This document shows, piece by piece, positions 3,049-46,021 of a stretch of DNA of 64,000 nucleotides. The position numbers were made by a program, and so were the translations under genes. This DNA is from Bdellovibrionales bacterium (GTDB taxonomy: Bacteria > Bdellovibrionota > Bdellovibrionia > Bdellovibrionales > JAGQZY01), in NCBI GenBank assembly GCA_041739665.1, contig JBGSNK010000077.1:11204-75203 (forward strand), given 5' to 3'. How positions within the stretch are numbered: the stretch's first letter is position 1; every line of letters begins with the position of its first letter. Below the pieces are notes generated by a model. It was not told where the DNA came from. It searched no databases and was given only the letters and a program-made list of their open reading frames with translations.

Positions 3049-4577
3049 GATTGCACCTCCACATAGGGCAAAAGGCCATGACGGCCTCCCTCGCGACCCC
3101 AGCCGCTTTCTTTATATCCACCAAATGGTGAAGCAGGATCAAATTTATTGTAAGTGTTCGCCCAAACAATACCGGCTTTAAGACCCAAAGCTGTTTTCTG
3201 AATTTTAGACGCCTTTTCAGACCACACGCCCGCAGCCAAGCCATAAGCGGTGTCATTGGCTTTAACAATGGCCTCTTGTGGAGTGCGAAAGGTGGAGATC
3301 GCCAATACGGGACCAAAAACCTCTTTGCGACAAATAGACGCCGAGGATGATACATTGTTAAAAAAGCAAGGTTTGTGGAAGTATCCCTCTTTAGGAAGGG
3401 TGGTTGCGCTTGCAGAAAAGTACTCTAAACCTTCCATTTGGGCTTCGCGAACAAAACCAGTAATCTTGTCCAACTCCACCTGAGAGTGAATGGCACCGAC
3501 ATCTGTATTTTTATCCAAGGGATTGCCGACTCTAAGAGAAGACATCCGAGCCTTCAATTTTTTAACAAAAAGATTTGCAATGGACTCTTCTAATAAAAGT
3601 CTGGAACCTGCACAGCACACATGACCTTGATTAAAGAAAATACCATTCACCACGCCCTCTACAGCTTGATCGAGCGCCGCATCTTCATAAACAATTTGGG
3701 CGGACTTTCCACCTAACTCCAAAGTCAGCTTGGTGTCTTTGCCAGCCAGGGAGCGGGCAATTATTTTACCCACCTCGGTCGAACCCGTAAATGCCACTTT
3801 GTTAATATCGGGATGATTGGTTAAACGCGCCCCAGTTTCTCCAGCACCAGTGACGATATTGACAACCCCGGGAGGCAATCCGGCCTCTTGGCATATCTCA
3901 GCTAACAAGAGAGCAGTCAGGGATGTGGTCTCAGCAGGCTTGAGAACAACGCAATTTCCAGTCGCCAGTGCAGGTGCAATCTTCCAGGCGGCCATCAAAA
4001 GTGGGAAATTCCACGGAATCACCTGAGCCGCAACACCAAGGGGACGAACATTTTTTCCAGAAAAAGCATAATCCAACTTATCGGCCCAACCCGCATTATA
4101 GAAAAAGTGAGCCGCGGCAAGTGGAATATCCACATCGCGTGATTCTTTGATAGGCTTTCCATTGTCGAGTGTTTCAAGCACAGCCAATTCACGAGAGCGA
4201 TCTTGAATCAATCGGGCAATGCGAAACAAATACTGAGCTCGCTCAGAACCGGTCGTCTTTGACCAAACTTGTTCAAAGGCTTTTCTTGCCGAACGAACCG
4301 CCTTATCCACATCTTGTTCAGTGGATTCCACAACCTTAGATAATGCCAGCCCTGTAGCTGGATTGAGCGTATCAAAAAATTGTTCTCCTGTGGACTCTAC
4401 AAACTCCCCATTGATAAACAATTTTTGTGTCTCGGCAATCTTCACAATATCGGTGGATTCAAGGCTTGGCGCATATTGAAAGGAAAATCCTTTCTTTCCA
4501 CTCTCCTCTGTCTTGTGAGGCTGGTTATCTGAAGACGGGGATACCTTATCTTTTTTTCTCATAAATTTTTCTAGCAT
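3045..4577 (-). CDS. NAD(P)+-dependent aldehyde dehydrogenase
   Basis: 510 aa with ALDH hallmarks: VIPWNFPL, FTGSTEVGK, LELGGKS, FFNQGHVCCAGSRL (catalytic Cys). Confidence 0.9.
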   Translation of the reverse strand: MLEKFMRKKDKVSPSSDNQPHKTEESGKKGFSFQYAPSLESTDIVKIAETQKLFINGEFVESTGEQFFDTLNPATGLALSKVVESTEQDVDKAVRSARKAFEQVWSKTTGSERAQYLFRIARLIQDRSRELAVLETLDNGKPIKESRDVDIPLAAAHFFYNAGWADKLDYAFSGKNVRPLGVAAQVIPWNFPLLMAAWKIAPALATGNCVVLKPAETTSLTALLLAEICQEAGLPPGVVNIVTGAGETGARLTNHPDINKVAFTGSTEVGKIIARSLAGKDTKLTLELGGKSAQIVYEDAALDQAVEGVVNGIFFNQGHVCCAGSRLLLEESIANLFVKKLKARMSSLRVGNPLDKNTDVGAIHSQVELDKITGFVREAQMEGLEYFSASATTLPKEGYFHKPCFFNNVSSSASICRKEVFGPVLAISTFRTPQEAIVKANDTAYGLAAGVWSEKASKIQKTALGLKAGIVWANTYNKFDPASPFGGYKESGWGREGGRHGLLPYVEVQS

Positions 4578-5691: not shown

Positions 5692-7011
5692 ATGACTGAA
5701 AAAAATGGCAAGCCCCCGGCTCTTAAAATGAAATTCACCGAGGCCCTCTTCAACCGTCGCATGCTCATTTGCTTGTTCAATGGGGCTTCTGCCGGTCTTC
5801 CCCTTTTTTACATTTACCACCTTATCCCGGCCTGGTTGCGTTCCGAGGATGTGGATCTTAAAACCATCGGCCTTTTTGCCTTGGTTGGAATCCCCTACAA
5901 CTGGAAGTTTCTTTGGTCCCCTTTGCTCGACCGCTACGCCCCACCCTTTTTAGGTTTACGCCGTGGCTGGATGCTCATCACCCAACTTGGATGCATGCTC
6001 AGCATGTTCGCCATGGCCTTCTTGCAACCCATAACGTCTATTGGTTGGATTGCCTATGGAGCTGCCGCACTGGCCTTCTTCTCCGCCAGCCAAGATATCG
6101 TACTCGATGCCTATCGACGTGAACTTTTAAGTGATCGCGAGTTGGGACTTGGCAACTCCATGTATATGAATGGCTACCGTGCTATGGCTTTTATACCAGG
6201 TGGATTGGGTCTCATACTTGCCGATATTTTGCCCTGGTTTTGGGTGCACATTATCATTGGCAGCTTCATGTTTGTTGGAATTGTGAAGACTCTCTTGATC
6301 GATGAGTTGCACCGCTACACTTCTCGCCCTAAAACTCTGAGAGAGTCTGTTGTCGAACCATTGAAGGAATTTTTTAATCGCAAAGGTGTGACCTCAGCTC
6401 TTCTGGTTATCTCTTTTTTGTTTTTATACAAACTGGGCGACAATATGGCCACCGCTCTCTCCACTCCCTTCTATCTTGATGTTGGTTTTTCTATGACTGT
6501 TATCGGAACCACAGTGAAATTAGTGAACTTTTGGTCCATGTTAATTGGTTCCTTTATCGGGGGCGTGGGCATTTATCGCTACGGAATCAATCGTTGCCTG
6601 TGGCTTTTTGGCTTTGTACAAATGACCTCCATTTTTGGTTTCGCAGTTCTCAACGAAGTAGGTCCTGTGCACTGGGTTTTAGCTACTGTGATTGCTTTTG
6701 AATATTTAGGTGTGGGTCTTGGCGCATCCGCCTTGACCGCTTATATGGCTCGCGCCACCAGTATGAATTTCACCGCTACGCAATTTGCATTGTTCTCGAG
6801 CCTGATTGCATTACCACGTACTTTCGCCAATGCGACAACAGGCTTTTTAATTGAAGGTGTGAACAATAAGGATGGTGTTCTCTACTCGATATTCGGCACC
6901 CTTCCGGGGCTTGGCTACACACAGTTTTTTATTCTCTGCGGACTACTTGCAGTCCCCGGATTATTTCTTCTCTTTTGGGTCGCACCATGGAACGAAACCG
7001 AACACACTTGA
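5692..7011 (+). CDS. ampG: AmpG-family MFS permease (muropeptide transporter)
   Basis: 439 aa, multi-TM. The N-terminal LPLFYIYHLIPAWLRSEDVDLKTIGLFALVGIPYNWKFLWSPLLDRY matches the AmpG signature region as I remember it. Confidence 0.75.
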   Translation: MTEKNGKPPALKMKFTEALFNRRMLICLFNGASAGLPLFYIYHLIPAWLRSEDVDLKTIGLFALVGIPYNWKFLWSPLLDRYAPPFLGLRRGWMLITQLGCMLSMFAMAFLQPITSIGWIAYGAAALAFFSASQDIVLDAYRRELLSDRELGLGNSMYMNGYRAMAFIPGGLGLILADILPWFWVHIIIGSFMFVGIVKTLLIDELHRYTSRPKTLRESVVEPLKEFFNRKGVTSALLVISFLFLYKLGDNMATALSTPFYLDVGFSMTVIGTTVKLVNFWSMLIGSFIGGVGIYRYGINRCLWLFGFVQMTSIFGFAVLNEVGPVHWVLATVIAFEYLGVGLGASALTAYMARATSMNFTATQFALFSSLIALPRTFANATTGFLIEGVNNKDGVLYSIFGTLPGLGYTQFFILCGLLAVPGLFLLFWVAPWNETEHT

Positions 7012-7069
7012 GAGAAATTTCACTCTTTGCTATCCACAAGTTATATAAATGAAAGAGTTCTTCTCCCGC

Positions 7070-7200
7070 TGGAGAGTTTTCAAGTTTCGATTGTATCTTG
7101 AGTCTCTGGCAAGCTGGAAGCGTTTTCACCCGCAGGGTGAAATGCCAGCAAGGGCATGGAGCCCGGCCTCAAGAGACAATCGAAACTTGAAAACTCTCCA
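7070..7200. repeat. structured palindromic element, copy 1 (candidate novel ncRNA or repeat family)
   Basis: 7070-7094 is the exact reverse complement of 7176-7200 (25 bp), extended by 7 bp (7096-7102/7168-7174). The interior holds P2 CTGGCA/TGCCAG with the bulge AGCTGGAAGCGT, the apex TTTCACCC-GCA-GGGTGAAA, and P3 GGGC-ATGGA-GCCC. The architecture is shared with 37291-37410. Confidence 0.7.
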
Positions 7201-7328
7201 CCAAGCAGAAAACTATTTGAGTGTCTCGCTTTGGAACGATCAACTGCTCTATTTTTCAATTGGCAGTATGGGCTTTTTGCAGGCTCAACTCTTTGCTATC
7301 ATTGAGTAAATTGATCGGGGGATGGTCT

Positions 7329-7538
7329 ATGGATTTCTTAGAATTTGTTTATTATGAGTCACTACCTTACGCTTATGCTTCGATTGGAGCCTTTGCATTC
7401 ATGAATCAAGAATTCTCAAAAATAGCCGGAGTGGCTGGTGTCGTACTTGCCTTTTGTAGCTACCAAGTTTTCATGAGAAGATACAAATACCGTATGCGTG
7501 GGCAAAATCATGGCAGAACAATAACTAGGCGAATTTAA
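7329..7538 (+). CDS. small membrane protein (69 aa)
   Basis: Internal ATG of ORF 7221..7538, preceded by GGGGGA. It has two hydrophobic segments (SLPYAYASIGAFAFM, IAGVAGVVLAFCSYQVF) and a basic tail. Its stop overlaps the convergent ABC-F stop by 4 nt. Confidence 0.45.
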   Translation: MDFLEFVYYESLPYAYASIGAFAFMNQEFSKIAGVAGVVLAFCSYQVFMRRYKYRMRGQNHGRTITRRI

Positions 7539-9352
7539 TCCAATTCGGTTAATTGAGACTCAAATTTCTGAAGAGTCTTATCTTGCTGATTAATAAGTTC
7601 ATCGAGCCTTTGATAACTGGTGGCAATTTTCATCTGAACTTCACCAATTTTTTGGAATAAATCTTGTGCCACTGGCGTTCCATACTCCAATTCTGCCATC
7701 ATCCTGTTTTTTTCTTCCAAATCGGACTCAAGATCTATGATACTCAATTCCAGTTTCTCAATTTCTTTTTTTATGGGATTCACCTGCTTGGCTCGGGCTT
7801 GCACAATTTCAGCGCGACGACGTCGCATTTCTTTTTTATCGTGATTGTTTTTTTTGGATTTTTGAACAGGCTCTTCACCCCAACCCTCTTTATTTAAAAA
7901 TTCTTCATAGGTCCCTAAGAAAAGATGGGCGTCTCCATTTTTAAACACGATAAGCTTGTTAGCCAATTTATCGAGAAGATCCTCATCATGACTGACAAAG
8001 AGAACACCACCAGGAAAATTGTCAATCTCTTCACAAAGAGCTTGAATAGACTCCATATCCAAGTGATTGGTGGGCTCATCTAAGAGTAAAAGATTGCAAG
8101 ACTTAGCAATGACTTTGCCCAACAAAACACGTCCTTGTTCGCCACCAGAAAGAACCGAGATTTTTTTTTCAGCATCATCGCCCGAGAACATCATAGCTCC
8201 ACAGATCGAACGCACTTGGCTTATCGAGAGGTTTGGGTTCTCGGAGCCAATCTCTTCATAAACCATTGCGTTGGGACTGAGCTTCTTTTTGTTGGTCTGC
8301 TGGTAGTAGGCAATGCGACTGTCGGGATGCTGGCTGATCTGTCCGTGAGCCGCGACCTGTCCGGCTATGGCGTTGAGTAAAGTCGTTTTACCGTAACCAT
8401 TTTTACCAATGATGGCGATGCGATCCTCGGGCTCTACACGAAAACTCAAGCCCTTGAACAAGGGATTTGCAGGATCATAACCAAACTCAAGATCCTCTAC
8501 AGTCATTAGAACTTTTGCAGGTGTTTCTTTAAAATTAAATCGAAAGCCGAGCTGATCTTCCGCTGAGAGTTTCATCATCGGTTTGATTTTTTCAATTTTC
8601 TTCAATTTTGATTGAGCTTGTTTAGCCTTGGAACTCTTGGCTCGAAAGCGATCCACAAAGGCCTGCATCTCTTTGACTTTTTTCTCTTGATTGACCCTGG
8701 TTTTTTCATAAATCTCCTCGTCAAGAGAGAGTTGCTCATAATACTTGCTTGTGTTGCCTTCGATTTTTCGTAAGCTTTGGCGATGAATACCCATGGTGTG
8801 GGTCACGACCGAGTCCATAAAGTTCCGATCGTGGGTGATGAGGATCACCTCCCCGCTAAAGTTTTTTAGAAACTGCCGCATCCAGTGCAAACTTAAAATA
8901 TCAAGATAGTTGGTCGGCTCGTCGAGTAACAAAAGATCGGGTTCTTGCAAAAGACTTTTCACTAAATTAATACGCAATTGGAAGCCGCCGGAGAATTCAT
9001 GGGGCGAGCGAGTCATATCTTCGGAAGTAAATCCCAGTCCGAAAAGCAGAGCTTCGGCTTTATAGAGATCGTTCTCACTGCCGCGAGGCAGGGCCGTGGC
9101 CGCCTCTTTGAGAACCTGGTCTTCTGTGAAGCGAATATGCTGATCTAAAAAACCGATGCGATAGGATTTGGGACAGTGGATATCGCCGTGATCCGCTTGC
9201 TCTTCCCCACGCATGATCTTAAACAACGTGGACTTTCCACAACCATTGCGCCCGACTAGCCCCACTACCTCGCCAGGACTGACCGAAAAAGACACATCTG
9301 AAAATAAAATACGAGATCCATAGGATTTTTGAAGATTGGCAACTTGTAGCAT
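7535..9352 (-). CDS. ABC-F family ATPase (two ABC domains, no TM domain, coiled-coil C-terminal extension)
   Basis: 605 aa with two Walker A motifs (GRNGCGKST, GKNGYGKTT), two signature motifs (FSGGFQ, LSGGEQ) and a basic/coiled C-terminus. Confidence 0.9.
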   Translation of the reverse strand: MLQVANLQKSYGSRILFSDVSFSVSPGEVVGLVGRNGCGKSTLFKIMRGEEQADHGDIHCPKSYRIGFLDQHIRFTEDQVLKEAATALPRGSENDLYKAEALLFGLGFTSEDMTRSPHEFSGGFQLRINLVKSLLQEPDLLLLDEPTNYLDILSLHWMRQFLKNFSGEVILITHDRNFMDSVVTHTMGIHRQSLRKIEGNTSKYYEQLSLDEEIYEKTRVNQEKKVKEMQAFVDRFRAKSSKAKQAQSKLKKIEKIKPMMKLSAEDQLGFRFNFKETPAKVLMTVEDLEFGYDPANPLFKGLSFRVEPEDRIAIIGKNGYGKTTLLNAIAGQVAAHGQISQHPDSRIAYYQQTNKKKLSPNAMVYEEIGSENPNLSISQVRSICGAMMFSGDDAEKKISVLSGGEQGRVLLGKVIAKSCNLLLLDEPTNHLDMESIQALCEEIDNFPGGVLFVSHDEDLLDKLANKLIVFKNGDAHLFLGTYEEFLNKEGWGEEPVQKSKKNNHDKKEMRRRRAEIVQARAKQVNPIKKEIEKLELSIIDLESDLEEKNRMMAELEYGTPVAQDLFQKIGEVQMKIATSYQRLDELINQQDKTLQKFESQLTELD

Positions 9353-17652: not shown

Positions 17653-18444
17653 ATGGGCAAAGTAACATCTTTAATTAGTAATAAATCTGGTTTTAGTCTA
17701 GTCGAGCTCGTTATTGTTTCGGGCCTTCTTGGGATTTTGATCGCGGCAAGTGGCTCTATCATTCTCAATTTACAAAAGACTATGAATGGCCTTAATGCTC
17801 AACAAGAATTGACCTCGTTGAGTAGTGAAGTTCAAGGACGTATGATTGCTGAAAAGCTTTGTACGCCTTCTATCGTTCCTGCAAATAAATTTCAAAACTT
17901 TAGTCTCACACAGGCTTCAGCATTGAGCTCAAGCGCTAACGCTGGGATGCCATTCTCGTTTCTGTTAGCAAATGGAGAGAGCATTCAAGCAAACCAAACC
18001 CTTTTAGGCTACCCATTTTTGGTCGAGAGTTTTGAACTTTACGACGCTCAAATTGTTGATTCCTCACCACTTGAACAGACATATATGGCCAATGTTGTAG
18101 GGCGCTTTAAATACAATAGATCGGTAAATGGTCCCTCCGAGTTTCAAAGAAACTTCGGGACCCTTTTCATAAAAGTCAACAATAGCAATCAGATTACAAA
18201 TTGCTCAAAAACTGACTTGAGTTTAAGTGGCAGAGATTGCAAAGCTTGTGGAATAAACAACACCATATCCACACTTATTATGCAAAACCAAACATGCTCT
18301 CCACCAGGCGTTGAAATGATCGCGCCAGAAGGTTCCGTTCGTAGTAAAATTGTTAGCTGCCCGAGTGGACAAGCGAATATTTCTACAATCTGTATTAACG
18401 GCGAATGGAGAAGTATAGGAACTTGTGGCAAAGACAATAACTAA
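17653..18444 (+). CDS. prepilin-type N-terminal cleavage/methylation domain protein with a Cys-rich C-terminal module
   Basis: NKSGFSLVELVIVSGLLGILIA is a class III (type IV pilin) signal. The protein is 263 aa with 7 Cys in the last ~80 aa. GGGGGAG Shine-Dalgarno upstream. Confidence 0.75.
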   Translation: MGKVTSLISNKSGFSLVELVIVSGLLGILIAASGSIILNLQKTMNGLNAQQELTSLSSEVQGRMIAEKLCTPSIVPANKFQNFSLTQASALSSSANAGMPFSFLLANGESIQANQTLLGYPFLVESFELYDAQIVDSSPLEQTYMANVVGRFKYNRSVNGPSEFQRNFGTLFIKVNNSNQITNCSKTDLSLSGRDCKACGINNTISTLIMQNQTCSPPGVEMIAPEGSVRSKIVSCPSGQANISTICINGEWRSIGTCGKDNN

Positions 18445-18468
18445 TAATTAATTGTAAATATAAAATAG

Positions 18469-18696
18469 TCATTTATTGGTTCGAGCTGTTGCGATTGCGA
18501 GATCTATCTCAACCATCCATTGCTCGAGGAGCGTAAAATCGTAAGTTTCTTTACCATAAATCTCTGCCTCGACCATTTTTAATAAATCAGCGTCCATAAT
18601 TCTCACAAACGGATTTACGCTCTGACCGATTGTGTGCGAATCGCTCCAATCTAATAAAACCCAACCTCTTTCTACAAATACGAGGGAACAGATCAC
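18469..18696 (-). CDS. hypothetical ORF (possibly a gene remnant)
   Basis: 75-aa ORF with a GTG start, no convincing RBS and no recognisable family, in an AT-rich accessory stretch. Confidence 0.2.
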   Translation of the reverse strand: MICSLVFVERGWVLLDWSDSHTIGQSVNPFVRIMDADLLKMVEAEIYGKETYDFTLLEQWMVEIDLAIATARTNK

Positions 18697-18771
18697 AAGA
18701 ATGCTCGTGAAGTCTTCGAAAAAATATTCCCTGCCAATAAGGATGGGGTTTACACAACTGATACCGAAGTC

Positions 18772-18963
18772 ATGAAAGTTATCCTACCTGACAAAGAACA
18801 CCTGCTTTTAGGGGCTTTCACAGAAGATGAGGAAACTAAAAAGTTTTTTGAACATGGCAAGAGAGGAAAATTTGATTTTGAAGTTTGCTACTGCTCTCTA
18901 TACGAGCAGTGCTGGTTGCTGCACGGGAAAAATGAACATAAAAAAATAAGCCAATGTGATTGA
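18772..18963 (+). CDS. hypothetical ORF (possibly a 5'-truncated remnant)
   Basis: 63-aa ORF. The frame stays open upstream to 18658 without any start codon, which suggests a decayed larger gene. Confidence 0.2.
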   Translation: MKVILPDKEHLLLGAFTEDEETKKFFEHGKRGKFDFEVCYCSLYEQCWLLHGKNEHKKISQCD

Positions 18964-19023
18964 GGAGCCTGTGATTATTTTGGAGTCGCTGCGGTTTAAC
19001 AACAAATATCTTGGATTAGATTC

Positions 19024-19052
19024 TTGACTATATTGGACCATCATTCCATAAT
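19024..19052 (+). promoter_or_regulatory. sigma-70-type promoter, apparently giving a leaderless mRNA
   Basis: TTGACT (19024-19029), 17-nt spacer, CATAAT (19047-19052). The ATG of the next gene is at 19059, with no Shine-Dalgarno in between. Confidence 0.4.
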
Positions 19053-19058
19053 AGCCAA

Positions 19059-20252
19059 ATGCACATAAAGAGGGACTTTTTTGACACTATTAAAACTGGT
19101 ACCCAGCTCGAGGCCGTTATGGTTTGGGGGCCAAGGCAGGTGGGCAAAACCACTTTACTTGACCAGCTAGACCTTAACTCAAGACTTTTTCTTGATGATC
19201 TAGGTGCCCGGCAGAGCGCTCAAAATGACCCTGCCTTTGTTATTAGCACTCTCAAACTCCCCTGCTTGATTGACGAAGCCCAGTATGCTCCCAATCTTTT
19301 CCCAGAGATTAAACGCCTGATCGATCAGCAGCGTCGTGAGGGACTGAAGGTGGGCTCTAAACCCGCAACCCAATTTTACTTTACTGGCTCCAACCGCACC
19401 CTTTTAGACAAGACTGTGAAAGAATCTTTGGCGGGTCGCTGTCACCTGTTCACTCTGCATGGACTTTCAATTAAAGAGTTGCAACGGGACTTCAACCATT
19501 TAAATATTGGCGATTATTTTGTTAACGGAGGATTCCCAGAGCTTTATACGCGAGAAAATCTGAACCCAAGACACTATATCAATGACTACATAACATCTTT
19601 TGTAGAGAAAGATATAGCCGTCAGTGCAGGCATTGAAAAAATGGAAAGCTTTCACAAAGCAATTCGCCTATTGGCTGCCCGCACAGGACAATTCCTTAAC
19701 ATCAGCGAACTATCTAAACTCGCAGGAGTCGATCAAAAAACATTGGATAGCTGGCTTACTTTGCTACAAAGAAATTCCGTCATTGAGCTTTTACCCACTT
19801 TTGCGACTAATCTAAGTAAACGCATTGTCAAAATGAAAAAACTTTTCTTTTATGATGTTGGTTTATGTTCGCGCCTACAAGGCTTTGTTGAACCTGACTC
19901 AATAATTCATTCTCCCCAGGCTGGCGCCTTGTTTGAAACCTTGGTGTTTTCGGAAATAGTCAAAACGCGAGATAATTTTTTAAAAGAGTGGCAACTTCAT
20001 ACCTGGCGCACAAAAGAGAAAAACGAAATTGACTTCATCCTGACAACTCCAAATCAGACGTTTTTTATCGAAGCAAAGATGGGTGTAAATAGCATCTCAG
20101 ACTTTAAAGTCGATCCAGAAGCCAAAAAGGTATTCAGGCAGAATGTCAAAAAAATTATTGTTTCAGCTGGAGGTGAAATACAAAAAATCTCTACTGATTC
20201 CATCGGTGTCCCTTTGAAAGACTTGGGGGATTACCTCCTTAAGGAGTCGTAA
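19059..20252 (+). CDS. AAA-family ATPase with a DUF4143-like C-terminal domain
   Basis: 397 aa with the Walker A motif GPRQVGKTT and Walker B-like LIDEAQ. The length and layout match the AAA_14/DUF4143 family as I remember it. Confidence 0.7.
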   Translation: MHIKRDFFDTIKTGTQLEAVMVWGPRQVGKTTLLDQLDLNSRLFLDDLGARQSAQNDPAFVISTLKLPCLIDEAQYAPNLFPEIKRLIDQQRREGLKVGSKPATQFYFTGSNRTLLDKTVKESLAGRCHLFTLHGLSIKELQRDFNHLNIGDYFVNGGFPELYTRENLNPRHYINDYITSFVEKDIAVSAGIEKMESFHKAIRLLAARTGQFLNISELSKLAGVDQKTLDSWLTLLQRNSVIELLPTFATNLSKRIVKMKKLFFYDVGLCSRLQGFVEPDSIIHSPQAGALFETLVFSEIVKTRDNFLKEWQLHTWRTKEKNEIDFILTTPNQTFFIEAKMGVNSISDFKVDPEAKKVFRQNVKKIIVSAGGEIQKISTDSIGVPLKDLGDYLLKES

Positions 20253-20318
20253 AACTTATGATAATAAGAAAACACCCTTGGAGAAAATGCTCCAGCGGGA
20301 AATACTGATATTTAAAAG

Positions 20319-20849
20319 TTACATCTCGTTAAAACGGTAATGAGCATAGCCACTCTTGGTCTTAATCCGATAGAACGACCACGAATACTGACGCTTTTCT
20401 GTTACAGAATCAAGAACGCCGTCAATCCCGTTAATACAAAAATATTCCTGGCCCTTTAACACCTTATTAATCTCCGTCAGTAAACCCTCACATACCTCTC
20501 CAGAAACAGCATGGCTTAAACTGTAAAAGTGGTTTTCAGTCTCGGTTCCTATAGCAATGTCCAATAAAGACCCTGATCTATCAAACGGCTCAATGTTATT
20601 ACACTTTATCTTCAAATACTTTTTATTAAAGCACTGCCAGTACGGATATCCCATACTTATTCCATCAAAAGGAGTTGCTTTAAAAGAACCTTTGTCAGAC
20701 TGTTTAAGATCCTCTATAGAAAGGATTCCATAATCATAGTTTACAAGTCCATAATGGCTTTGCTTATAAATAAAACTTTCGATTTCTCTTTGAAAGAAGA
20801 AGATCGCGGCCACGACAATAGTTAAAACAGAAAGAAATATCTTTTTCAT
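20319..20849 (-). CDS. membrane-anchored or secreted hypothetical protein
   Basis: 176 aa. The N-terminus MKKIFLSVLTIVVAAIFFF is hydrophobic. No recognised family. Confidence 0.5.
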   Translation of the reverse strand: MKKIFLSVLTIVVAAIFFFQREIESFIYKQSHYGLVNYDYGILSIEDLKQSDKGSFKATPFDGISMGYPYWQCFNKKYLKIKCNNIEPFDRSGSLLDIAIGTETENHFYSLSHAVSGEVCEGLLTEINKVLKGQEYFCINGIDGVLDSVTEKRQYSWSFYRIKTKSGYAHYRFNEM

Positions 20850-20916
20850 TCCTTGAGTCTCCTATAAATCTTGAGAAACTTATTCCTCTGCCTTATTGCA
20901 CTTTTATTGCCTTTCT

Positions 20917-21585
20917 TTAGCCTGCAGTATAGGCTTTGTATACCATCGCTGCCTCTTCCCATGAAACTGTACGCTTCAACTTGTGTTCCAATAGATATTT
21001 TTTGTGGAATAACCATCGAATACCAGCTGCGATGTTTAGATTCGGATCGAAAGCCTCGTTCTGATCAATATTAACTAAAAAATCCTTAAGCTCGCCCTTT
21101 TCATTTTTGAGGATTTCAATTGTTTCATCTGTCACTTGCATAAGCCCGTGAGCCCAATTACCCTTACTTGCTAAAACCTTAGCTGTTTCTTTAAAATCAG
21201 ACTCAGTTCTTATGAGAGCTTTTATAAGGTTGGCTTCCAAATGGACTTTAGGCTGTAACAGCTCATTCCAATATTTCGTCCATCCCGCGATGACTCTGTC
21301 ATAATTGTTTCCATTGGGCCGATCTAATTTATCAGGAGTGGGTAACTTCCTAAGGCGACCAAAGTTTTTTTGAGCAATTTTTTGAATCTCTTCGGAATAG
21401 ATTTGATCCTTCCTTGAGCGATTAACACGACAATGTCCATCCCGAATCGTCAAACCAGAAGGGTTCTTTTTACTTACAGGAACATGAAGAGGGTGCGCAG
21501 AGACCCAATGCTCATCGTGTGGACACATTCTCCATGGGTGTATTTTTTTTCTTTGTTTTGTTGTTTTTTTCTTTGGCACTAACAA
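20917..21585 (-). CDS. lytic transglycosylase (SLT) domain protein without an obvious signal peptide
   Basis: 222 aa. IRTESDF...GLMQVT...AGIRWL is the SLT catalytic-Glu and GLMQ pattern. The N-terminus is highly basic with a His/Cys cluster (HPWRMCPHDEHWVSAHPLH...GHC). Confidence 0.7.
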   Translation of the reverse strand: MLVPKKKTTKQRKKIHPWRMCPHDEHWVSAHPLHVPVSKKNPSGLTIRDGHCRVNRSRKDQIYSEEIQKIAQKNFGRLRKLPTPDKLDRPNGNNYDRVIAGWTKYWNELLQPKVHLEANLIKALIRTESDFKETAKVLASKGNWAHGLMQVTDETIEILKNEKGELKDFLVNIDQNEAFDPNLNIAAGIRWLFHKKYLLEHKLKRTVSWEEAAMVYKAYTAG

Positions 21586-21773
21586 CCCACACCTTATGAA
21601 GTACTTTTTTTATATTCATTTTTTCAGGATTTGTTCGTTATGTGTTATTGTATACATAATCCTCGTAAAACAACGTCTAGACAAGCTGTCGCTCAGCTAT
21701 TTTCTCTTTTTAATTTTATTTTGAAGCTTTAGGGGAGGGTAGGTCCTTCACTGCGCTCAGGATGACGAAAGTT

Positions 21774-21827
21774 TGGAGGTGGTGAGTGACTTCTCACCCC
21801 TACGGGGATTCGAATTCCTCCACCACC
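21774..21827. repeat. tRNA-Cys-derived chimeric mini-tRNA-like palindrome
   Basis: 21800-21827 is an inverted copy of the 28 nt at 21899-21926 (T-arm plus 3' acceptor strand of tRNA-Cys). 21774-21784 (TGGAGGTGGTG) is a direct copy of 21895-21905 (acceptor 3' strand + discriminator + CCA). Confidence 0.8.
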
Positions 21828-21894
21828 GGAGCGGAGCGACCAAACAAATAGACGGAATGCAAATGGGAAGTGGCAACGACCAGGACTGGTGAAA

Positions 21895-21968
21895 TGGAGG
21901 TGGTGGAGGAATTCGAATCCCCGTAGATGGATTTGCAGTCCACTGCCTAGCCACTCGGCCACACCACC
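21895..21968 (-). tRNA. tRNA-Cys (GCA), CCA encoded
   Basis: Reverse complement: GGTGGTG-TG-GCC..GGC-A-GTGGA-CTGCAAA-TCCAT-CTAC-GGGGA-TTCGAAT-TCCTC-CACCACC-T-CCA. It has a 7-bp acceptor stem, a canonical T-loop and anticodon GCA. 74 nt. Confidence 0.9.
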
Positions 21969-21984
21969 CCTGCAAGAAGCGGAG

Positions 21985-22013
21985 ATACTACTTGTAAGGG
22001 GAGGAGTGGGCAA
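21985..22013 (-). promoter_or_regulatory. candidate sigma-70 promoter for tRNA-Cys
   Basis: On the minus strand: TTGCCC (22013-22008), 17-nt spacer, TAGTAT (21990-21985), about 16 nt upstream of the tRNA 5' end. Confidence 0.35.
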
Positions 22014-36407: not shown

Positions 36408-36914
36408 TTAGGCTTCAATTCCAAAGATGGCTTTGACTTCGTCGCTTTCCAATTCTTTCTTGGTGGTAGCTAATGAAAGCTCGGTGATGAGCAGGGTACG
36501 AGCTGTGTCTAGCATCTTACGCTCCCCAAAACTCAACTCCTTATCCACTTTAAGTAAGAACAAATCGCGAAGAACCTCAGCGATTTCATAGACAGATCCT
36601 GTTTTGATTTTTTCCATGTACTCGCGATAACGACGGTTCCAGGTTTGATTGTCAATTTTGACATTTTTTTCCTGGAGGATACCCAAAACCTTAGAGGCCT
36701 CTGTTTTAGAAATGATCGGACGTAATCCCACATTTCTCACATTGTTTCGGGGAACCATAATTTTCATACCAGTTTCAAGGATGCGTATAGAGTAAAAAAC
36801 TTGTGTACACCCCATCATCTCTTTAGTATCGACAGCGACGACTTCACCTACTCCATGACCGGGATAAACCGCATTGTCCCCTACTACAAAAACATCGTCC
36901 TTCTCTTGACCCAT
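36408..36914 (-). CDS. carD: CarD-family RNA polymerase-binding transcription regulator
   Basis: Start at MGQEKDDVF (GGAGG upstream). GDNAVYPGHGVGEV... is the CarD/TRCF RID-like N-domain. 168 aa. Confidence 0.85.
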   Translation of the reverse strand: MGQEKDDVFVVGDNAVYPGHGVGEVVAVDTKEMMGCTQVFYSIRILETGMKIMVPRNNVRNVGLRPIISKTEASKVLGILQEKNVKIDNQTWNRRYREYMEKIKTGSVYEIAEVLRDLFLLKVDKELSFGERKMLDTARTLLITELSLATTKKELESDEVKAIFGIEA

Positions 36915-37132
36915 GGATCCTCCATTTAGCGAATGCGACTTTATAACATTTATGACACACTTCGACAACAACAAAAGTGACAATTCTTGCTCCATTGCAC
37001 CTTTGATTTCTGTAATTATTTCAGCAGTGTAGAAGACTTAATCAACTTCTCACTCCAACTCAAAGCAGCACCCTCGCCGCCCTGGCACAAAATTTAAAAA
37101 GCTCAATCTCAAAACAAATATTTGTGATCACT

Positions 37133-37171
37133 TTTTTAACAAGCCTGTAGGAACTTCAGGCTTGTTAAAAA
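37133..37171. repeat. 15-bp perfect hairpin (T5-led, A5-trailed), not a canonical terminator
   Basis: TTTTTAACAAGCCTG 37133-37147 and CAGGCTTGTTAAAAA 37157-37171 with a 9-nt loop. Neither strand has a U-tract after the stem. Confidence 0.6.
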
Positions 37172-37290
37172 GAGATCGTCATTTAAAACAGTGACTCACT
37201 TGAAATGACATCAAGGCATAGGGGCTTGAGATTTTGCTGCAACAACATCCTTTCTACCGAACACCCAGGATAAGCTTTTTTATTTAAGGT

Positions 37291-37410
37291 AGGTTGTGAA
37301 GCTGTGAGTTCTTGCGAGGCTCCAGGAAGCAGGATGCGTTTTTTGCCCGTAGGGCAAAAATCCTGGCTGGCAGGAGCCTGTCCTTGCAAGAACTCACAGC
37401 TTCACAACCT
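37291..37410. repeat. structured palindromic element, copy 2 (candidate novel ncRNA or repeat family)
   Basis: 37291-37315 is the exact reverse complement of 37386-37410 (25 bp). The interior holds P2 CCAGGA/TCCTGG with the bulge AGCAGGATGCGT, the apex TTTTTGCCC-GTA-GGGCAAAAA, and P3 (CT)GGC-AGGA-GCC(TG). An extra outer inverted repeat lies at 37268-37282 / 37421-37434. Confidence 0.7.
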
Positions 37411-37428
37411 GGCAGCAAACTAAAAAAA

Positions 37429-39516
37429 TTATCCAATAAGGTCTTTGTTTTTTTCTGTGAGGTGTTGGCGCAAAGACGCATTGTCTTTGCGGCGCAACTC
37501 GGGGTCTTGTTCAATAATGGTGAAGGCCGCCTCGCGCGCCTGCTTAAGAATATCGATGTCGCGAATGAGGTTCGCCATTCTGAAGCCAGGCAAGCCGGAC
37601 TGGCGTGACCCTAAAAATTCGCCAGGGCCACGAATTTCCAAATCCGCTTCTGAGATTTGAAACCCATCTTGACAGGTTTCCATCATATCAATGCGCGCTT
37701 TGGATTCGGGCGATACAGCAAAGCCCAAAGATAAAATACAATAACTTTTGTGTTCGCCACGCCCCACTCGTCCGCGCAATTGATGCAATTGGGACAAACC
37801 AAATCTCTCGGCATGATCAATCCAAATGATATTGGCGTTAGGCACATCCACGCCCACTTCGATCACAGTTGTAGCCACAAGAATTTGATATTCGCCAGAG
37901 TAAAAGGCCAACATCACTTCGTCTTTTTGTTCGCTCTTCATCTTGCCGTGGACCAATCCCATTTTGTACTGGGGCAATTCTTTAGAAAGTTTCTCGAACT
38001 CTTGAACGGCCGAGGTCAGTTCGATTTTTTCGCTCTCATCGACAAGGGGAAACACAATATAAGCTTGCCGACCCTTTTCAATTTGTTCGCCGATAAATTT
38101 TAGAATCTGAGCTCGCTTACTTTGAAAGGTCACTCGGGTTTGTACGGGTTGTCTTCCAAGCGGCATTTCGTTAATAATAGACACATCCAGATCCCCATAG
38201 ACAGTCATAGCCAAACTGCGAGGAATCGGAGTGGCAGTCATCAATAAAAAGTGAGGGCTGAGGCCTTTGTTCTTCAACTTTTTTCTTTGTTCCACACCAA
38301 AGCGGTGTTGCTCGTCGACGATTACCAATCCTAAGTTATGAAACTGCACACCCTCTTGGATCAGCGCGTGGGTGCCCACCACTAAATCAAACTCACCCAA
38401 AGCGATTTTTTCTTGAACCTCTGTTTTCTCTTTGGCTTTCATGTGGCCACTGATAAAACCAACTCTCACCCCAAGGGGTCCGAGGAGTTTTATTGCTCCT
38501 TTAAAATGCTGTTTGGCTAAAATTTCTGTGGGCACCATAAGAGCGACTTGATAGCTATTTTCTATGGCCAGCAATGAGGCCATCAACGCCACCAAAGTTT
38601 TTCCACTGCCCACATCCCCTTGTACTAAACGGTGCATGGGGTGCGAACTGGTCAGGTCTGTGCAAATTTCATCAAAGGCACGAGTCTGAGCTCCTGTGAG
38701 CGAAAAGGGCAGTTTGGACTTCATTTGCTCTACTAAATGGGTGCGTTTTTCAAATTGAAGAGCCTTATCTTTGCGAACGCCCCGTCTTTTTGCAGCCAAA
38801 AGCAATTCAAGCCAAAAAAACTCTTCAAAGATCACTCGACGATGAAAGGAAGAGCGCAGCTCTATAAAGTCCTCGCCAGCCCCTTCGGGGGGCATATGGA
38901 TATGTTTGATTGTCTCCTCATATCCTGGGAGATTGTACTTCTTTAAAACCCATTGGGGAATTCGCTCTTGAACGCCCTTCACTTCACCACTTTCTATGGC
39001 CAAAGTGGCCTGGCTCAATATTTTACGCCATCTTGTCGTGCTCAGACCGTCCGTTTCCGAGTAGATCGGCACCAGTTCGTCTTTGAGATCTTCATCATGA
39101 CGAATGTCCTGAATATCGGGATGATTGAATTCGATTTGCCCTCTGTAATGGGAAACCTTTCCAATCACACGGACCTGTTGGCGAGGCTGAAAGCGTTCAA
39201 AATAGCCACGGTAGGGGACGCGAAAAAATTTGCAGTGGATCACTCCAGAGCCGTCGCGCAGAGTCACGTCCCAGACCTTTTTTCGCGTACGCCCCAATTG
39301 ATAGCTGCTGACTCCCACAACTTCGGCTTGAATGCTGACAATTTCATCGGGGCGAAGGGAGGCTATATTTCGAGCCACTCTGCGGTCTTCATAGGCACGG
39401 GGGTAGTTTTGCAAAAGGTCTCCCAATGTGGAAACACCTTTTTTACGCAAAAGTGCACCAAGTTTTGGACCAACCCCTTTTAGAAACTGAATCGGAGTGT
39501 CAATATGAAGAGACAT
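37429..39516 (-). CDS. recG: ATP-dependent DNA helicase RecG
   Basis: 695 aa with a wedge/OB N-domain, GDVGSGKT Walker A, the DEQH box and the TATPIPR motif. Confidence 0.95.
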   Translation of the reverse strand: MSLHIDTPIQFLKGVGPKLGALLRKKGVSTLGDLLQNYPRAYEDRRVARNIASLRPDEIVSIQAEVVGVSSYQLGRTRKKVWDVTLRDGSGVIHCKFFRVPYRGYFERFQPRQQVRVIGKVSHYRGQIEFNHPDIQDIRHDEDLKDELVPIYSETDGLSTTRWRKILSQATLAIESGEVKGVQERIPQWVLKKYNLPGYEETIKHIHMPPEGAGEDFIELRSSFHRRVIFEEFFWLELLLAAKRRGVRKDKALQFEKRTHLVEQMKSKLPFSLTGAQTRAFDEICTDLTSSHPMHRLVQGDVGSGKTLVALMASLLAIENSYQVALMVPTEILAKQHFKGAIKLLGPLGVRVGFISGHMKAKEKTEVQEKIALGEFDLVVGTHALIQEGVQFHNLGLVIVDEQHRFGVEQRKKLKNKGLSPHFLLMTATPIPRSLAMTVYGDLDVSIINEMPLGRQPVQTRVTFQSKRAQILKFIGEQIEKGRQAYIVFPLVDESEKIELTSAVQEFEKLSKELPQYKMGLVHGKMKSEQKDEVMLAFYSGEYQILVATTVIEVGVDVPNANIIWIDHAERFGLSQLHQLRGRVGRGEHKSYCILSLGFAVSPESKARIDMMETCQDGFQISEADLEIRGPGEFLGSRQSGLPGFRMANLIRDIDILKQAREAAFTIIEQDPELRRKDNASLRQHLTEKNKDLIG

Positions 39517-43960: not shown

Positions 43961-44011
43961 ATGTGGAAGTCATTGGGAATAACGCAAAAGAGATTTTTAA
44001 CTCTGTTCTAA
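43961..44011 (+). CDS. 16-aa micro-ORF (MWKSLGITQKRFLTLF)
   Basis: AAGGAGG sits 2 nt upstream of the ATG, just downstream of the sigma-54 promoter. Below the ORF-track length cutoff. Confidence 0.3.
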   Translation: MWKSLGITQKRFLTLF

Positions 44012-44168
44012 CCCCCTACCAGGCTCATTATTTGCTGAAAGTTCTGGATAGCAATTCATCAAATCAGTTTGCCCAACATTTTATGAGTAAACGACATCAA
44101 AAAAAGGACTTTATGATTATTCAAAGATCAGAAGATTAATAAACCAATAAGCCAAAGGAGACATCATT

Positions 44169-44294
44169 ATGGAACAAAAAAAGACGAATAAAACGCCACG
44201 AGATCAGTCCGCAGCAAAGACTGATTCGGACAGAAAAAATGAGGAAAAGGATCGAAAAACTGCCCAAGGTCAGGGTAAGGAGAGGTCTAGATAA
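44169..44294 (+). CDS. 41-aa highly charged small protein (MEQKKTNKTPRDQSAAKTDSDRKNEEKDRKTAQGQGKERSR)
   Basis: AAAGGAGA is 7 nt upstream of the ATG, and a clean terminator follows. Below the ORF-track length cutoff. Confidence 0.45.
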   Translation: MEQKKTNKTPRDQSAAKTDSDRKNEEKDRKTAQGQGKERSR

Positions 44295-44337
44295 CACCAA
44301 TTCATTTGGTGGAACCTGAGCGAACCTGACTAGGGAA

Positions 44338-44369
44338 CCGCATACAGAGTGATTTGTATGCGGTTTTTT
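44338..44369 (+). terminator. rho-independent terminator
   Basis: CCGCATACA 44338-44346 / TGTATGCGG 44355-44363, then T6 at 44364-44369. Confidence 0.75.
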
Positions 44370-44520
44370 AAGATCTTTGGAGCCACTTTTGTTTCTATCT
44401 AAGCAAGGTCTACACAGTTGCTACACAATTTAAAGAGACGACTGTGCAAAAATAGGGTGACCGGAATCTCCAAAGACTAAAAAAATGACATAATTATAAA
44501 ACTTATCTTGACCTCATAAG

Positions 44521-44549
44521 TTGCTGTAAAGAATTCCCATTGTTATAAT
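44521..44549 (+). promoter_or_regulatory. candidate sigma-70 promoter of the regulator-kinase operon
   Basis: TTGCTG (44521-44526), 17 nt, TATAAT (44544-44549), about 57 nt upstream of the ATG at 44607. Confidence 0.4.
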
Positions 44550-44606
44550 TAATTAAGTCATATAAATTACAATTGTTTGGTGGAGAGATAAAGGAAGGAT
44601 TGCTGA

Positions 44607-46016
44607 ATGCCCTCTTCGATATTGATCCTAGATGACGACATCGACATCTGTCGCCTGTTTAAAACAGGCTTCGAGAATAAAGATTTTACAGCCGATATTG
44701 CAAACTCCCTTAAAGAAGCAAAAGCACTTGTCGAGAAAAAGCACTACGATGCTGTCCTTGCTGACATTTTTCTTGGCGAAGAAGACGGCCTTAACGGTTT
44801 ACAAGAACTGATCCAAATCAGTCCACGCACTCGCTACTTTTCGTTCACCAGCCAAGAAACTATACCATTAGCTGTTGGAGCCATGGAAAAGGGGGCAGCG
44901 AACTTCTTCCCAAAATCCCTGGGGTTAGATAAAATCATTGAACTTGTTAAATCAAAATTAGATCTTGAAATTGAAGTTACACCTCAAGATATCTGCGCCC
45001 ATCCAGACCTTATTGGACAGTCGCAAGAGATGTTTAAGGTCATGAGTCGCATTCAACAGTTTAGTCAGGTCGATTCAACAGTACTTATCACCGGTGAGTC
45101 GGGTACAGGTAAAGAAATTATTGCCAAAGCTATTCATGAAACTGGCTCACGTAATGAAGGAACTTTTCAAGCTATCAACTGCGGCGCAATTCCAGAAAAT
45201 CTTTTAGAGTCTGAATTCTTTGGACATACTAGAGGTGCTTTCACCGATGCTAAAAGTGATAAAAAAGGTCTCTTTGAAATCTGCACTAATGGCACACTCA
45301 TGTTAGACGAAATTGGCGACATGCCCCTTTCTTTACAAGTGAAACTCCTGCGCGTATTACAAGAGAAAGAAATTCGCCCCATCGGGGCAACACGATCTAT
45401 ATCAGTCAACCCACGCATAATTGCTTGCACTCACAGAGACCTTGGGGAAATGGTTCAGAATGGCACTTTTCGACAAGATCTATTGTTTCGTCTTTCAGTT
45501 TTACGTCTTGATGTTCCACCTCTGAGGCAAAGAAAAGAAGACATTCCCCTGCTTGCACAAGAATTTATTAATCGCTTTAATAAACGCTTCAAAAAAAATA
45601 TCTCACTCCCCTCACCTGAACTTTTAGTTCGATTGCAAAATTACGATTGGCCTGGAAATGTTCGCGAGTTACAGAATTCTTTGGAACGGGCTGTTGTTCT
45701 CGCTCATAAAAACGAACTCAGCCCCGAAGATATCTTCAATTCCAATCATCCTGCCACCCCAGATGCAGAAAAATCGGCACAAGATATCCCTCTGACACAT
45801 GAAATTGCTAAAAGTGAATTTGAAAAAAACTACACTCGCCATCTTCTAGAGGAGTCGCATGGGAATATTACTTTAGCTGCCAAAATGTCTGGCAAACACA
45901 GAGTAGAAATTTACCGTCTTATGAAAAAATTTGATTTCCATAGAGAAGACTTCTTTCCAAACAAAAAAAAAACTAACTATCAGGAGATCGCAGGTGGCTA
46001 CACCACTTCGAATTAA
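44607..46016 (+). CDS. sigma-54-dependent response regulator (NtrC family enhancer-binding protein)
   Basis: 469 aa with a REC domain (DDD...LADIFL), an AAA+ domain with GESGTGKE, the GAFTDA variant of GAFTGA, and a C-terminal HTH. Confidence 0.9.
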   Translation: MPSSILILDDDIDICRLFKTGFENKDFTADIANSLKEAKALVEKKHYDAVLADIFLGEEDGLNGLQELIQISPRTRYFSFTSQETIPLAVGAMEKGAANFFPKSLGLDKIIELVKSKLDLEIEVTPQDICAHPDLIGQSQEMFKVMSRIQQFSQVDSTVLITGESGTGKEIIAKAIHETGSRNEGTFQAINCGAIPENLLESEFFGHTRGAFTDAKSDKKGLFEICTNGTLMLDEIGDMPLSLQVKLLRVLQEKEIRPIGATRSISVNPRIIACTHRDLGEMVQNGTFRQDLLFRLSVLRLDVPPLRQRKEDIPLLAQEFINRFNKRFKKNISLPSPELLVRLQNYDWPGNVRELQNSLERAVVLAHKNELSPEDIFNSNHPATPDAEKSAQDIPLTHEIAKSEFEKNYTRHLLEESHGNITLAAKMSGKHRVEIYRLMKKFDFHREDFFPNKKKTNYQEIAGGYTTSN

Positions 46017-46021
46017 TTGAT

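Follow-up and report, generated by a model that had tools for sequence, protein, structure and literature searches.

The window analysed here, a stretch of 64,000 nucleotides (nt) from a Bdellovibrionales bacterium (GenBank assembly GCA_041739665.1, contig JBGSNK010000077.1, positions 11,204 to 75,203), contains two copies of an intergenic palindromic element in which a conserved core is enclosed by a long helix of free sequence. Copy 1 lies downstream of an ampG-like gene and copy 2 lies next to recG. Related copies are dispersed on metagenomic contigs, and the element is uncatalogued, being present neither in Rfam nor in the repeat catalogues that we searched. We consider it more likely to be a small mobile DNA than an ordinary RNA gene. 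Our preferred reading, which is tentative and to which we assign a probability of about 0.45, is that of a non-autonomous foldback element: its core, when folded as a single strand, would serve as a recognition module for an enzyme acting in trans.

Architecture and conservation of the element

The structure of copy 1 at positions 7070-7200, originally predicted from the letters of the window, was borne out base for base (Table 1). An outer helix (P1) closes a three-way junction with two inner helices: P2, which carries a 12-nt bulge and is topped by an apical hairpin, and P3, a short hairpin with GGA in its loop. The segment J1 reads UCU in this copy. The 12-nt bulge is a mini-hairpin of 2-3 bp in its own right. 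A second copy of like architecture, also predicted, was found at 37291-37410. The helix sequences of the two copies had been described as entirely different, which was not the case: their outer arms can be aligned with each other at roughly 55-60%. For copy 2, minimum-energy folding favours a GGCUCC/GGAGCC pairing over the 3-bp P3, but P3 is supported in place of this alternative by the compensatory change to GGU/ACC that a relative (L078) shows.

Both strands of both copies yielded folding z-scores of -10 to -13, and none of 200 shuffled sequences folded equally well (0/200). The 25-nt arm of each copy occurred in the window at its own two positions only, against 0 expected, and no second match to the arms was found in the window when up to 3 mismatches were allowed. 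Copy 1 is carried unchanged in an independent Logan assembly (L061), which indicates that it is not an assembly artefact.

The family was defined by a core-motif scan of metagenomes and by a covariance model (R1) that was built from seven metagenome relatives and then used to find more diverged copies. The yield was 23 or more non-redundant copies, on contigs with a G+C content of 0.42-0.47, and the same model, run without filters, detected no copies in the 64-kb window beyond the two. The hosts are probably Bdellovibrio-like bacteria, since the nearest named homologues of the flanking proteins belong to metagenome-assembled genomes (MAGs) of Bdellovibrionaceae or Bdellovibrionales. All copies lie between open reading frames (ORFs), many of them abutting or overlapping a stop codon, and they range in size from ~120 to 300 bp. 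Their common architecture consists of a sequence-free outer helix of 23-77 bp, a 6-bp P2, the 12-nt bulge mini-hairpin, an apical hairpin with a U-run and GCCC, and P3 with its GGA loop. Three subtypes were recognised: the c1-type (copy 1 and the relative L083), the A-type (copy 2 together with nine or more distinct loci), and the B-type, which is found on contigs of marine MAGs. The A-type copies at these loci are near-identical and have ~190 bp in common, including terminal inverted repeats of ~60 nt. Such terminal repeats are common to the A-type subfamily and differ between subfamilies; the T/C-rich outer segment of copy 1 and the left flank of copy 2 are both similar to the A-type repeat. 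The core itself recurs in different genera-level lineages and at a large number of unrelated loci.

The fold is selected and not accidental, as had been proposed from the two window copies. Across 16 distinct sequences, pairing was found in 95.5% of cells against 72% in shuffles, 26 of the 36 pairs changed on both sides, and the covariation score reached 0.615 against 0.18 in shuffled alignments. Covariation was limited to one consistent register, the score falling to 0.08-0.14 in controls whose partners had been slid by 1-3 columns. Individual helices show the same pattern in the 23-copy set, where P2 positions are occupied by three or four pair types. P3 exists as GGC/GCC, GGU/ACC, CUC/GAG, CCC/GGG and UUC/GAA, and the closing pairs of the mini-hairpin vary between G-C, A-U and G-U. 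The unpaired motifs of the core had been expected to be conserved, and they are so across relatives: GGA is invariant in the loop of P3, and the mini-hairpin presents N-GGA-N in all copies except one (GUGAC in L062).

The core is constrained and the arms are free in sequence. Copy 1 and L083 are ~94% identical over the core and have different arms. Among four full-length B-type copies that are linked to a gene for an HNH endonuclease (see below), the 75-nt core is 93-97% identical, whereas the adjacent HNH genes are 59-69% identical at codon position 3 and 88-91% at positions 1 and 2. The arms of the same four copies are 71-92% identical between copies and 83-100% complementary within a copy.

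Table 1. Positions in the window of the two copies, their parts and the neighbouring genes
Feature	Position	Strand	Remarks
Copy 1, full imperfect palindrome (extended arms and core)	7052..7218	.	Intergenic between ampG and the small ORF; 51-nt arms with 82% complementarity and 65 nt between them
Copy 1, outer helix P1, 5' arm	7070..7102	+	25 bp perfect (7070-7094 is the exact reverse complement of 7176-7200), A/G mismatch at 7095/7175, then 7 bp (7096-7102 / 7168-7174)
Copy 1, conserved core	7103..7167	+	From sequence, repeat search and folding; R1 match 64.6 bits, E 4e-14
Copy 1, P2	7106-7111 / 7143-7148		CTGGCA / TGCCAG
Copy 1, 12-nt bulge	7112-7123		AGCTGGAAGCGT; as mini-hairpin AGCUGGAAGCGU
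Copy 1, apical hairpin	7124-7142		8-bp stem 7124-7131 / 7135-7142, loop GCA
Copy 1, P3	7152-7164		GGGC-ATGGA-GCCC (loop AUGGA)
Copy 1, outer helix P1, 3' arm	7168..7200	+	
Copy 2, full imperfect palindrome	37268..37434	.	GGATAA...TTATCC termini; recG stop codon (37429-37431, minus strand) falls within the right end
Copy 2, outer helix P1, 5' arm	37291..37319	+	29 bp, one G-T
Copy 2, conserved core	37320..37381	+	A-type subfamily; R1 score 109.6 bits
Copy 2, P2	37322-37327 / 37361-37366		CCAGGA / TCCTGG
Copy 2, bulge	37328-37339		AGCAGGATGCGT; as mini-hairpin AGCAGGAUGCGU
Copy 2, apical hairpin	37340-37360		9-bp stem, loop GTA
Copy 2, P3	37369-37378		GGC-AGGA-GCC (loop AGGA)
Copy 2, outer helix P1, 3' arm	37382..37410	+	
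ampG-like major facilitator superfamily (MFS) permease gene	5692..7011	+	Upstream of copy 1; Pfam MFS_1, Acatn; homologues named AmpG in the sources
69-aa ORF	7329..7538	+	Downstream of copy 1; conserved in relatives; no Pfam family
carD	36408..36995	-	Downstream of copy 2; Pfam CarD_C, CarD_TRCF_RID
recG	37429..39516	-	Pfam RecG_wedge, DEAD, Helicase_C; stop codon inside the copy 2 terminal repeat

Neither copy matched any family of Rfam 15, in agreement with the original prediction: at gathering thresholds the whole window returned two tRNAs only, and the E-value mode, applied to both copies, returned only sub-threshold matches to miRNA precursors (30 bits against 63-85), which are attributable to the long helix. 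A BLAST search of both copies against phage and plasmid collections returned nothing. Scanning 185,579 species genomes, a set that does not include the organism of the window, for the core motif produced mostly chance matches in high-G+C genomes, and the same scan of viral contigs produced 11 loci, 0 of which fitted the covariance model. One repeat of Planctomycetota, GAGCCGGAAGCGTTAGCGCCCGGAG, fits the search pattern, fails the covariance model and was judged unrelated. Planctomycetota MAGs from several orders carry this ~25-nt repeat many times over (one of them at ~19 loci), often as inverted pairs that resemble the hairpins formed by doublets of repetitive extragenic palindromes (REPINs) (L001-L059; e.g., L043 3704-3790 and L051 3458-3540). 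We also considered that the arms might serve as anti-phage spacers or guides; 20-mers of three arms had 0 exact matches in 2.9 million viral contigs, and this possibility was rejected.

Dispersal, arms and HNH linkage

The family displays several habits of mobile DNA. Relative to the nearest gene, 5 copies are co-oriented and 8 are anti-oriented (our reading of the locus maps). A relation of orientation to replication was rejected, because no consistent link to GC skew was observed and both orientations occur on one contig. The site downstream of ampG is polymorphic among relatives. In the window it is occupied by a c1-type copy in plus orientation, and in a 95%-identical relative (L066) by an A-type copy in minus orientation, which begins at the stop codon and within which the contig ends. 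In an 85% syntenic relative (L062), the 69-aa ORF lies 121 nt past ampG with no element in between, against 318 nt in the window; this relative carries a copy 9.7 kb from its empty gap. An attempt to trace the right arm of copy 1 to an ancestral flank visible in L065 was not successful, the alignment score of 23 being not significant against a null of 17.4 +/- 2.1 (maximum 26). Pairs of elements occur as well, in tandem or inverted. With near-identical copies at distinct loci, site polymorphism and either orientation, the family is a dispersed repeat, and the earlier claim that the fold speaks against a simple transposable element of the miniature inverted-repeat type (MITE) is not supported. 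In one contig (L068), two diverged elements in opposite orientations (6776-7086 and 7172-8125) flank a gene for an IS30-like transposase (HTH_38 and rve) that adjoins an HNH unit, and four elements lie within 3 kb.

The arms vary in length as well as in sequence. Perfect arm helices reach 77 bp in L062, where an imperfect palindrome of ~300 bp (177-475), the inner 77 bp of which are perfect, fills the entire gap between two convergent genes. Its G+C content is 0.63 in a genome of 0.44, and the public annotation places a 36-aa gene there (278-388), which is a spurious call over the element. Contigs L066, L071 and L073 end within the element, an indication that short-read assemblies are broken by it. 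The element is of some practical concern, both for assembly and because it has been called as a small gene in at least one public annotation. Mismatches within arms comprise 21 of the G-U type and 13 of the A-C type, which represents no clear signature of an RNA strand. Finally, the core of L070 is inverted relative to the HNH gene when compared to L068 and L072, and its arms have not moved.

Replication template switching between inverted repeats is reported to homogenise the arms, to be able to extend them and to invert the spacer (PMC8604942, PMC8794818, PMC13100816). On the strength of these reports, perfect arms alone are no proof of selection for RNA pairing. Such a process would generate near-perfect arms of free sequence, their growth across intergenic gaps and a flipped core, all without selection on each base pair. 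It would leave the conserved, covarying and asymmetric core unexplained, and we infer that the core must be read in a folded, single-stranded form.

B-type copies were found at six distinct loci in different contexts, each of them 30-40 nt past the stop codon of a gene for a 266-aa HNH endonuclease, which is itself multi-copy in marine Bdellovibrionaceae MAGs. The element is thus an integral 3' part of a multi-copy HNH unit in one marine clade, which makes this nuclease the leading candidate for a partner. The protein combines a helical N-terminal region with weak ParB/Noc-like resemblance and a C-terminal HNH domain. The best NCBIfam match of this domain is the HNH region of IscB, at 32-42 bits against a cutoff of 175 and over the HNH part only; a structure search likewise matched HNH domains only, with no RuvC or PLMP part. 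No HNH gene was found beside any A-type or c1-type copy. We rejected the linkage as a general trait of the protein family on the basis of eight loci with homologues at 51-69% identity and no element, which means that the nuclease family has no general need of the element and that the linkage could be hitch-hiking. The HNH linkage is real but limited to one marine clade. Either the unit of this clade makes use of the element in cis, or a single capture of the element was followed by retention, and the second course would still require selection on the core. An HNH gene of 255 aa, encoding an identical protein at three places in one assembly (L111 2119-4463, L112 2190-4481, L113 245-1820), sits in a repeated unit of ~2.3 kb with long non-coding flanks and no palindromic element. 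A tandem repeat array with a period of ~72-75 nt lies downstream of it (L111 about 4159-4463).

Interpretation and competing explanations

Under our preferred reading, copies 1 and 2 would be solo, non-coding members of a foldback family of ~120-300 bp. Whenever a strand becomes single, as in the lagging-strand template, during repair or possibly in a transcript, the arms would snap into a long duplex and present the asymmetric ~65-nt core as a three-way junction bearing the GGA mini-hairpin, the U-run/GCCC hairpin and the GGA-loop hairpin. The folded core would then constitute a sequence- and structure-specific site for an enzyme that acts in trans to copy or move the element. Pairing would be all that is required of the arms; intramolecular template switching may keep them near-perfect, lengthen them into intergenic space and at times flip the core. 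The HNH nuclease is the leading, unproven, candidate for the partner enzyme.

Several observations weigh against this reading. No transposase, integrase or HNH gene was found among the scanned ORFs of the window or beside solo copies, and the element was absent from all eight loci of the more distant HNH homologues. The ends of A-type copies are not flanked by a consistent direct repeat indicative of target-site duplication, a lone 7-nt repeat (CACGTTG) around L078 being possibly due to chance, and no precise empty site was recovered among the relatives compared; for the recG-carD site, exact look-ups of the flanking proteins gave no record. The core is conserved above the non-synonymous sites of the neighbouring gene, as would be a host-beneficial RNA or DNA site, and such conservation in situ is unexpected for dead selfish copies. 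Finally, the alignment used for covariation was fitted to the model and its pairing is somewhat inflated; compensatory changes are still visible in the raw sequences.

Among described systems, REPINs and MITEs such as the Correia and ERIC (enterobacterial repetitive intergenic consensus) elements come closest; the element inverts their design and has no identified transposase. REPINs are likewise short, non-coding, intergenic, multi-copy and non-autonomous, and form a long hairpin as a single strand (PMC3116915, PMC3337134). In REPINs, however, the REP arms are conserved and recognised and the spacer is variable, whereas our element has a conserved centre and free arms. No RAYT/Y1 transposase was found among the selected ORFs scanned, in a search that was not exhaustive. 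MITEs of the Correia or ERIC type, when transcribed, form hairpins that can be cut by RNases. The Correia/NEMIS elements of Neisseria and the ERIC elements of enterobacteria are imperfect palindromes of 100-200 bp that are intergenic, abut genes and occur in either orientation (general review: PMC3184786). Our element resembles them in all these respects, in being short, non-coding and multi-copy, with at least 23 copies, and in the terminal inverted repeats that A-type copies share as a MITE subfamily does. It differs in that MITE families are defined by terminal repeats that are bound by a transposase, with target duplication, while this one is defined by an internal, covarying, folded core. 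No insertion sequence with ends matching the element's repeats was found in the sequences examined. If our reading is correct, bacteria possess a type of repeat built opposite to REPINs and MITEs, with a conserved three-way-junction core and arms of any sequence that pairs, which would imply a mobilising enzyme of unknown type that reads structure. The family would also provide a natural system for the creation, perfection and extension of long palindromes in bacterial chromosomes, for the flipping of their centres and for the acquisition of such an element by an HNH nuclease gene.

The strongest alternative, which we nevertheless view as unlikely, is that the element encodes a structured RNA serving the host or the element itself. 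It would be produced by read-through or from its own promoter, the duplex acting as a substrate of RNase III or a stabiliser of 3' ends and the core as a protein-binding module. The covariation of the short helices (P2, P3 and the mini-hairpin), the conserved loop nucleotides with GGA in P3 and in nearly all bulge loops, and a core more conserved than the adjacent coding sequence are all compatible with an RNA. In addition, many of the copies are flanked by convergent genes, so that transcription would cover both strands, and copy 1 is co-oriented with ampG. CsrA/RsmA proteins bind A(N)GGA in hairpin loops, and the two GGA motifs of the element, displayed in hairpin loops ~45 nt apart, may by analogy resemble sites of this type. 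CsrB/RsmZ sponge RNAs likewise have short hairpins with GGA motifs in their loops; they differ in having many such hairpins, their own promoter and terminator and no long perfect outer helix, whereas the element has two or three GGA sites, no transcription signals and one member (L062) without one GGA motif. Copy 2, moreover, is antisense to both of its neighbours, orientations are mixed in the family as a whole, and the core can flip in place. We detected neither a sigma-70-like promoter nor an intrinsic terminator at either window copy, the terminator scan being at or below shuffle expectation. T-runs precede and A-runs trail the hairpin on both strands, which argues against a terminator and led us to reject an intrinsic bidirectional terminator. 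The arms show no clear surplus of G-U over A-C mismatches, RNA genes do not usually have perfect arms of 57-77 bp or spread in MITE-like bursts, and there is no Rfam match. Hammerhead, twister and inverton readings did not fit the sequence and its neighbours. If the element were an RNA after all, it would be a new motif, conserved and with loops that present GGA, from a lineage of predatory bacteria that has received little study.

A bolder variant of the mobile-element reading, which we hold to be quite improbable, would make the core the dedicated folded partner, as single-stranded DNA or as RNA, of the small nuclease, in which a helical, ParB-like region that binds DNA would be joined to an HNH domain. 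The element would then define a new class of HNH-driven, structure-targeted mobile elements, solo copies being non-autonomous riders and arms being made and extended from local DNA by hairpin-templated synthesis. The element has a parallel in the ends and guide-RNA scaffolds of the IS200/IS605 family (the omega RNA or HEARO of IscB and the reRNA of TnpB), which are also structured non-coding modules next to a small nuclease gene with scattered solo copies. In contrast to the omega RNA, our element follows the gene on its 3' side, and what varies in the element is a closed duplex and not a free guide. An IscB/IsrB omega RNA was rejected given the lack of a match to HEARO or any other Rfam family and the low scores of the linked protein, confined to its HNH region.

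Less probable still is a host DNA site acting as an extruded cruciform or lagging-strand hairpin, for instance as a switch for recombination or inversion, as a signal in replication or repair or as a site for a nucleoid protein, and spread by duplication and not by mobility of its own. The symmetric, strand-neutral pairing statistics, the independence of orientation, the inversion of the core between its arms and the position at gene ends would all agree with such a site. No recombinase or invertase is encoded nearby among the scanned ORFs, however, the core contains no promoter-like motif for an inversion to switch, a spacer of 62-65 bp is very short for site-specific inversion, and near-identical copies at no fewer than nine unrelated loci need a mechanism of dispersal. 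Integron attC sites are comparable as structure-defined recombination-type sites that are active as a folded single strand, of similar size and with bulged or extrahelical bases. They differ in having conserved R''/L''-L'/R' boxes at the base, a variable top and a location in cassette arrays beside an integron integrase, whereas the element has a variable base and a conserved top. We rejected an attC site because the ends (TGGAGAG...CTCTCCA and AGGTTGT...ACAACCT) contain no GTTRRRY/RYYYAAC, because single copies lie between housekeeping genes and because there is no integrase among the scanned ORFs. A retron msr-msd was rejected as well, the neighbours being ampG, the 69-aa ORF, an ABC-F ATPase gene, carD and recG, with no adjacent reverse-transcriptase gene.

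We disfavour, as highly improbable, a functionless by-product of mutation in which template switching makes and perfects palindromes around an old shared spacer: such switching is reported to make stems perfect, render arms alike and turn spacers round (PMC8794818, PMC8604942), and an unrelated 28-bp perfect inverted copy of tRNA-Cys sequence in the window suggests that it happens in this genome, but the core keeps 93-97% identity next to genes whose synonymous sites are almost saturated, recurs at unrelated loci in distinct genera-level lineages and covaries in a consistent register.

Further observations in the window

The 69-aa ORF that follows copy 1 is conserved in relatives with 77-85% ampG identity, where it likewise lies between ampG and the gene for the ABC-F ATPase. 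Between copy 2 and carD lies a separate 18-bp hairpin, TTTTTAACAAGCCTGTAG / CTTCAGGCTTGTTAAAAA (37133-37171), with a 3-nt loop and flanking T- and A-runs, which resembles a conventional bidirectional terminator more closely than the element does.

Two stretches of the window, 18000-22000 and 44000-48000, are of lower G+C content (0.40 against 0.44-0.47 elsewhere), and each adjoins a tRNA gene (Cys and His). The ORFs scanned in them encode a pilin-like N_methyl protein, an AAA_14/DUF4143 ATPase, an SLT transglycosylase and a two-component system, with no integrase or transposase among them. The inverted copy of tRNA-Cys sequence mentioned above covers the 3' half of the gene (T-arm and acceptor strand): positions 21800-21827 match 21899-21926 perfectly over 28 bp, and the copy lies 71 nt downstream of the tRNA-Cys gene (21895-21968, minus strand). 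We rejected this repeat as a third member of the family, its spacer being unrelated and its R1 match (E = 0.15) resulting from the helix alone. In a read-through transcript the inverted copy would pair with the 3' half of the tRNA itself. It could be a product of template switching or the remnant of an integration site.

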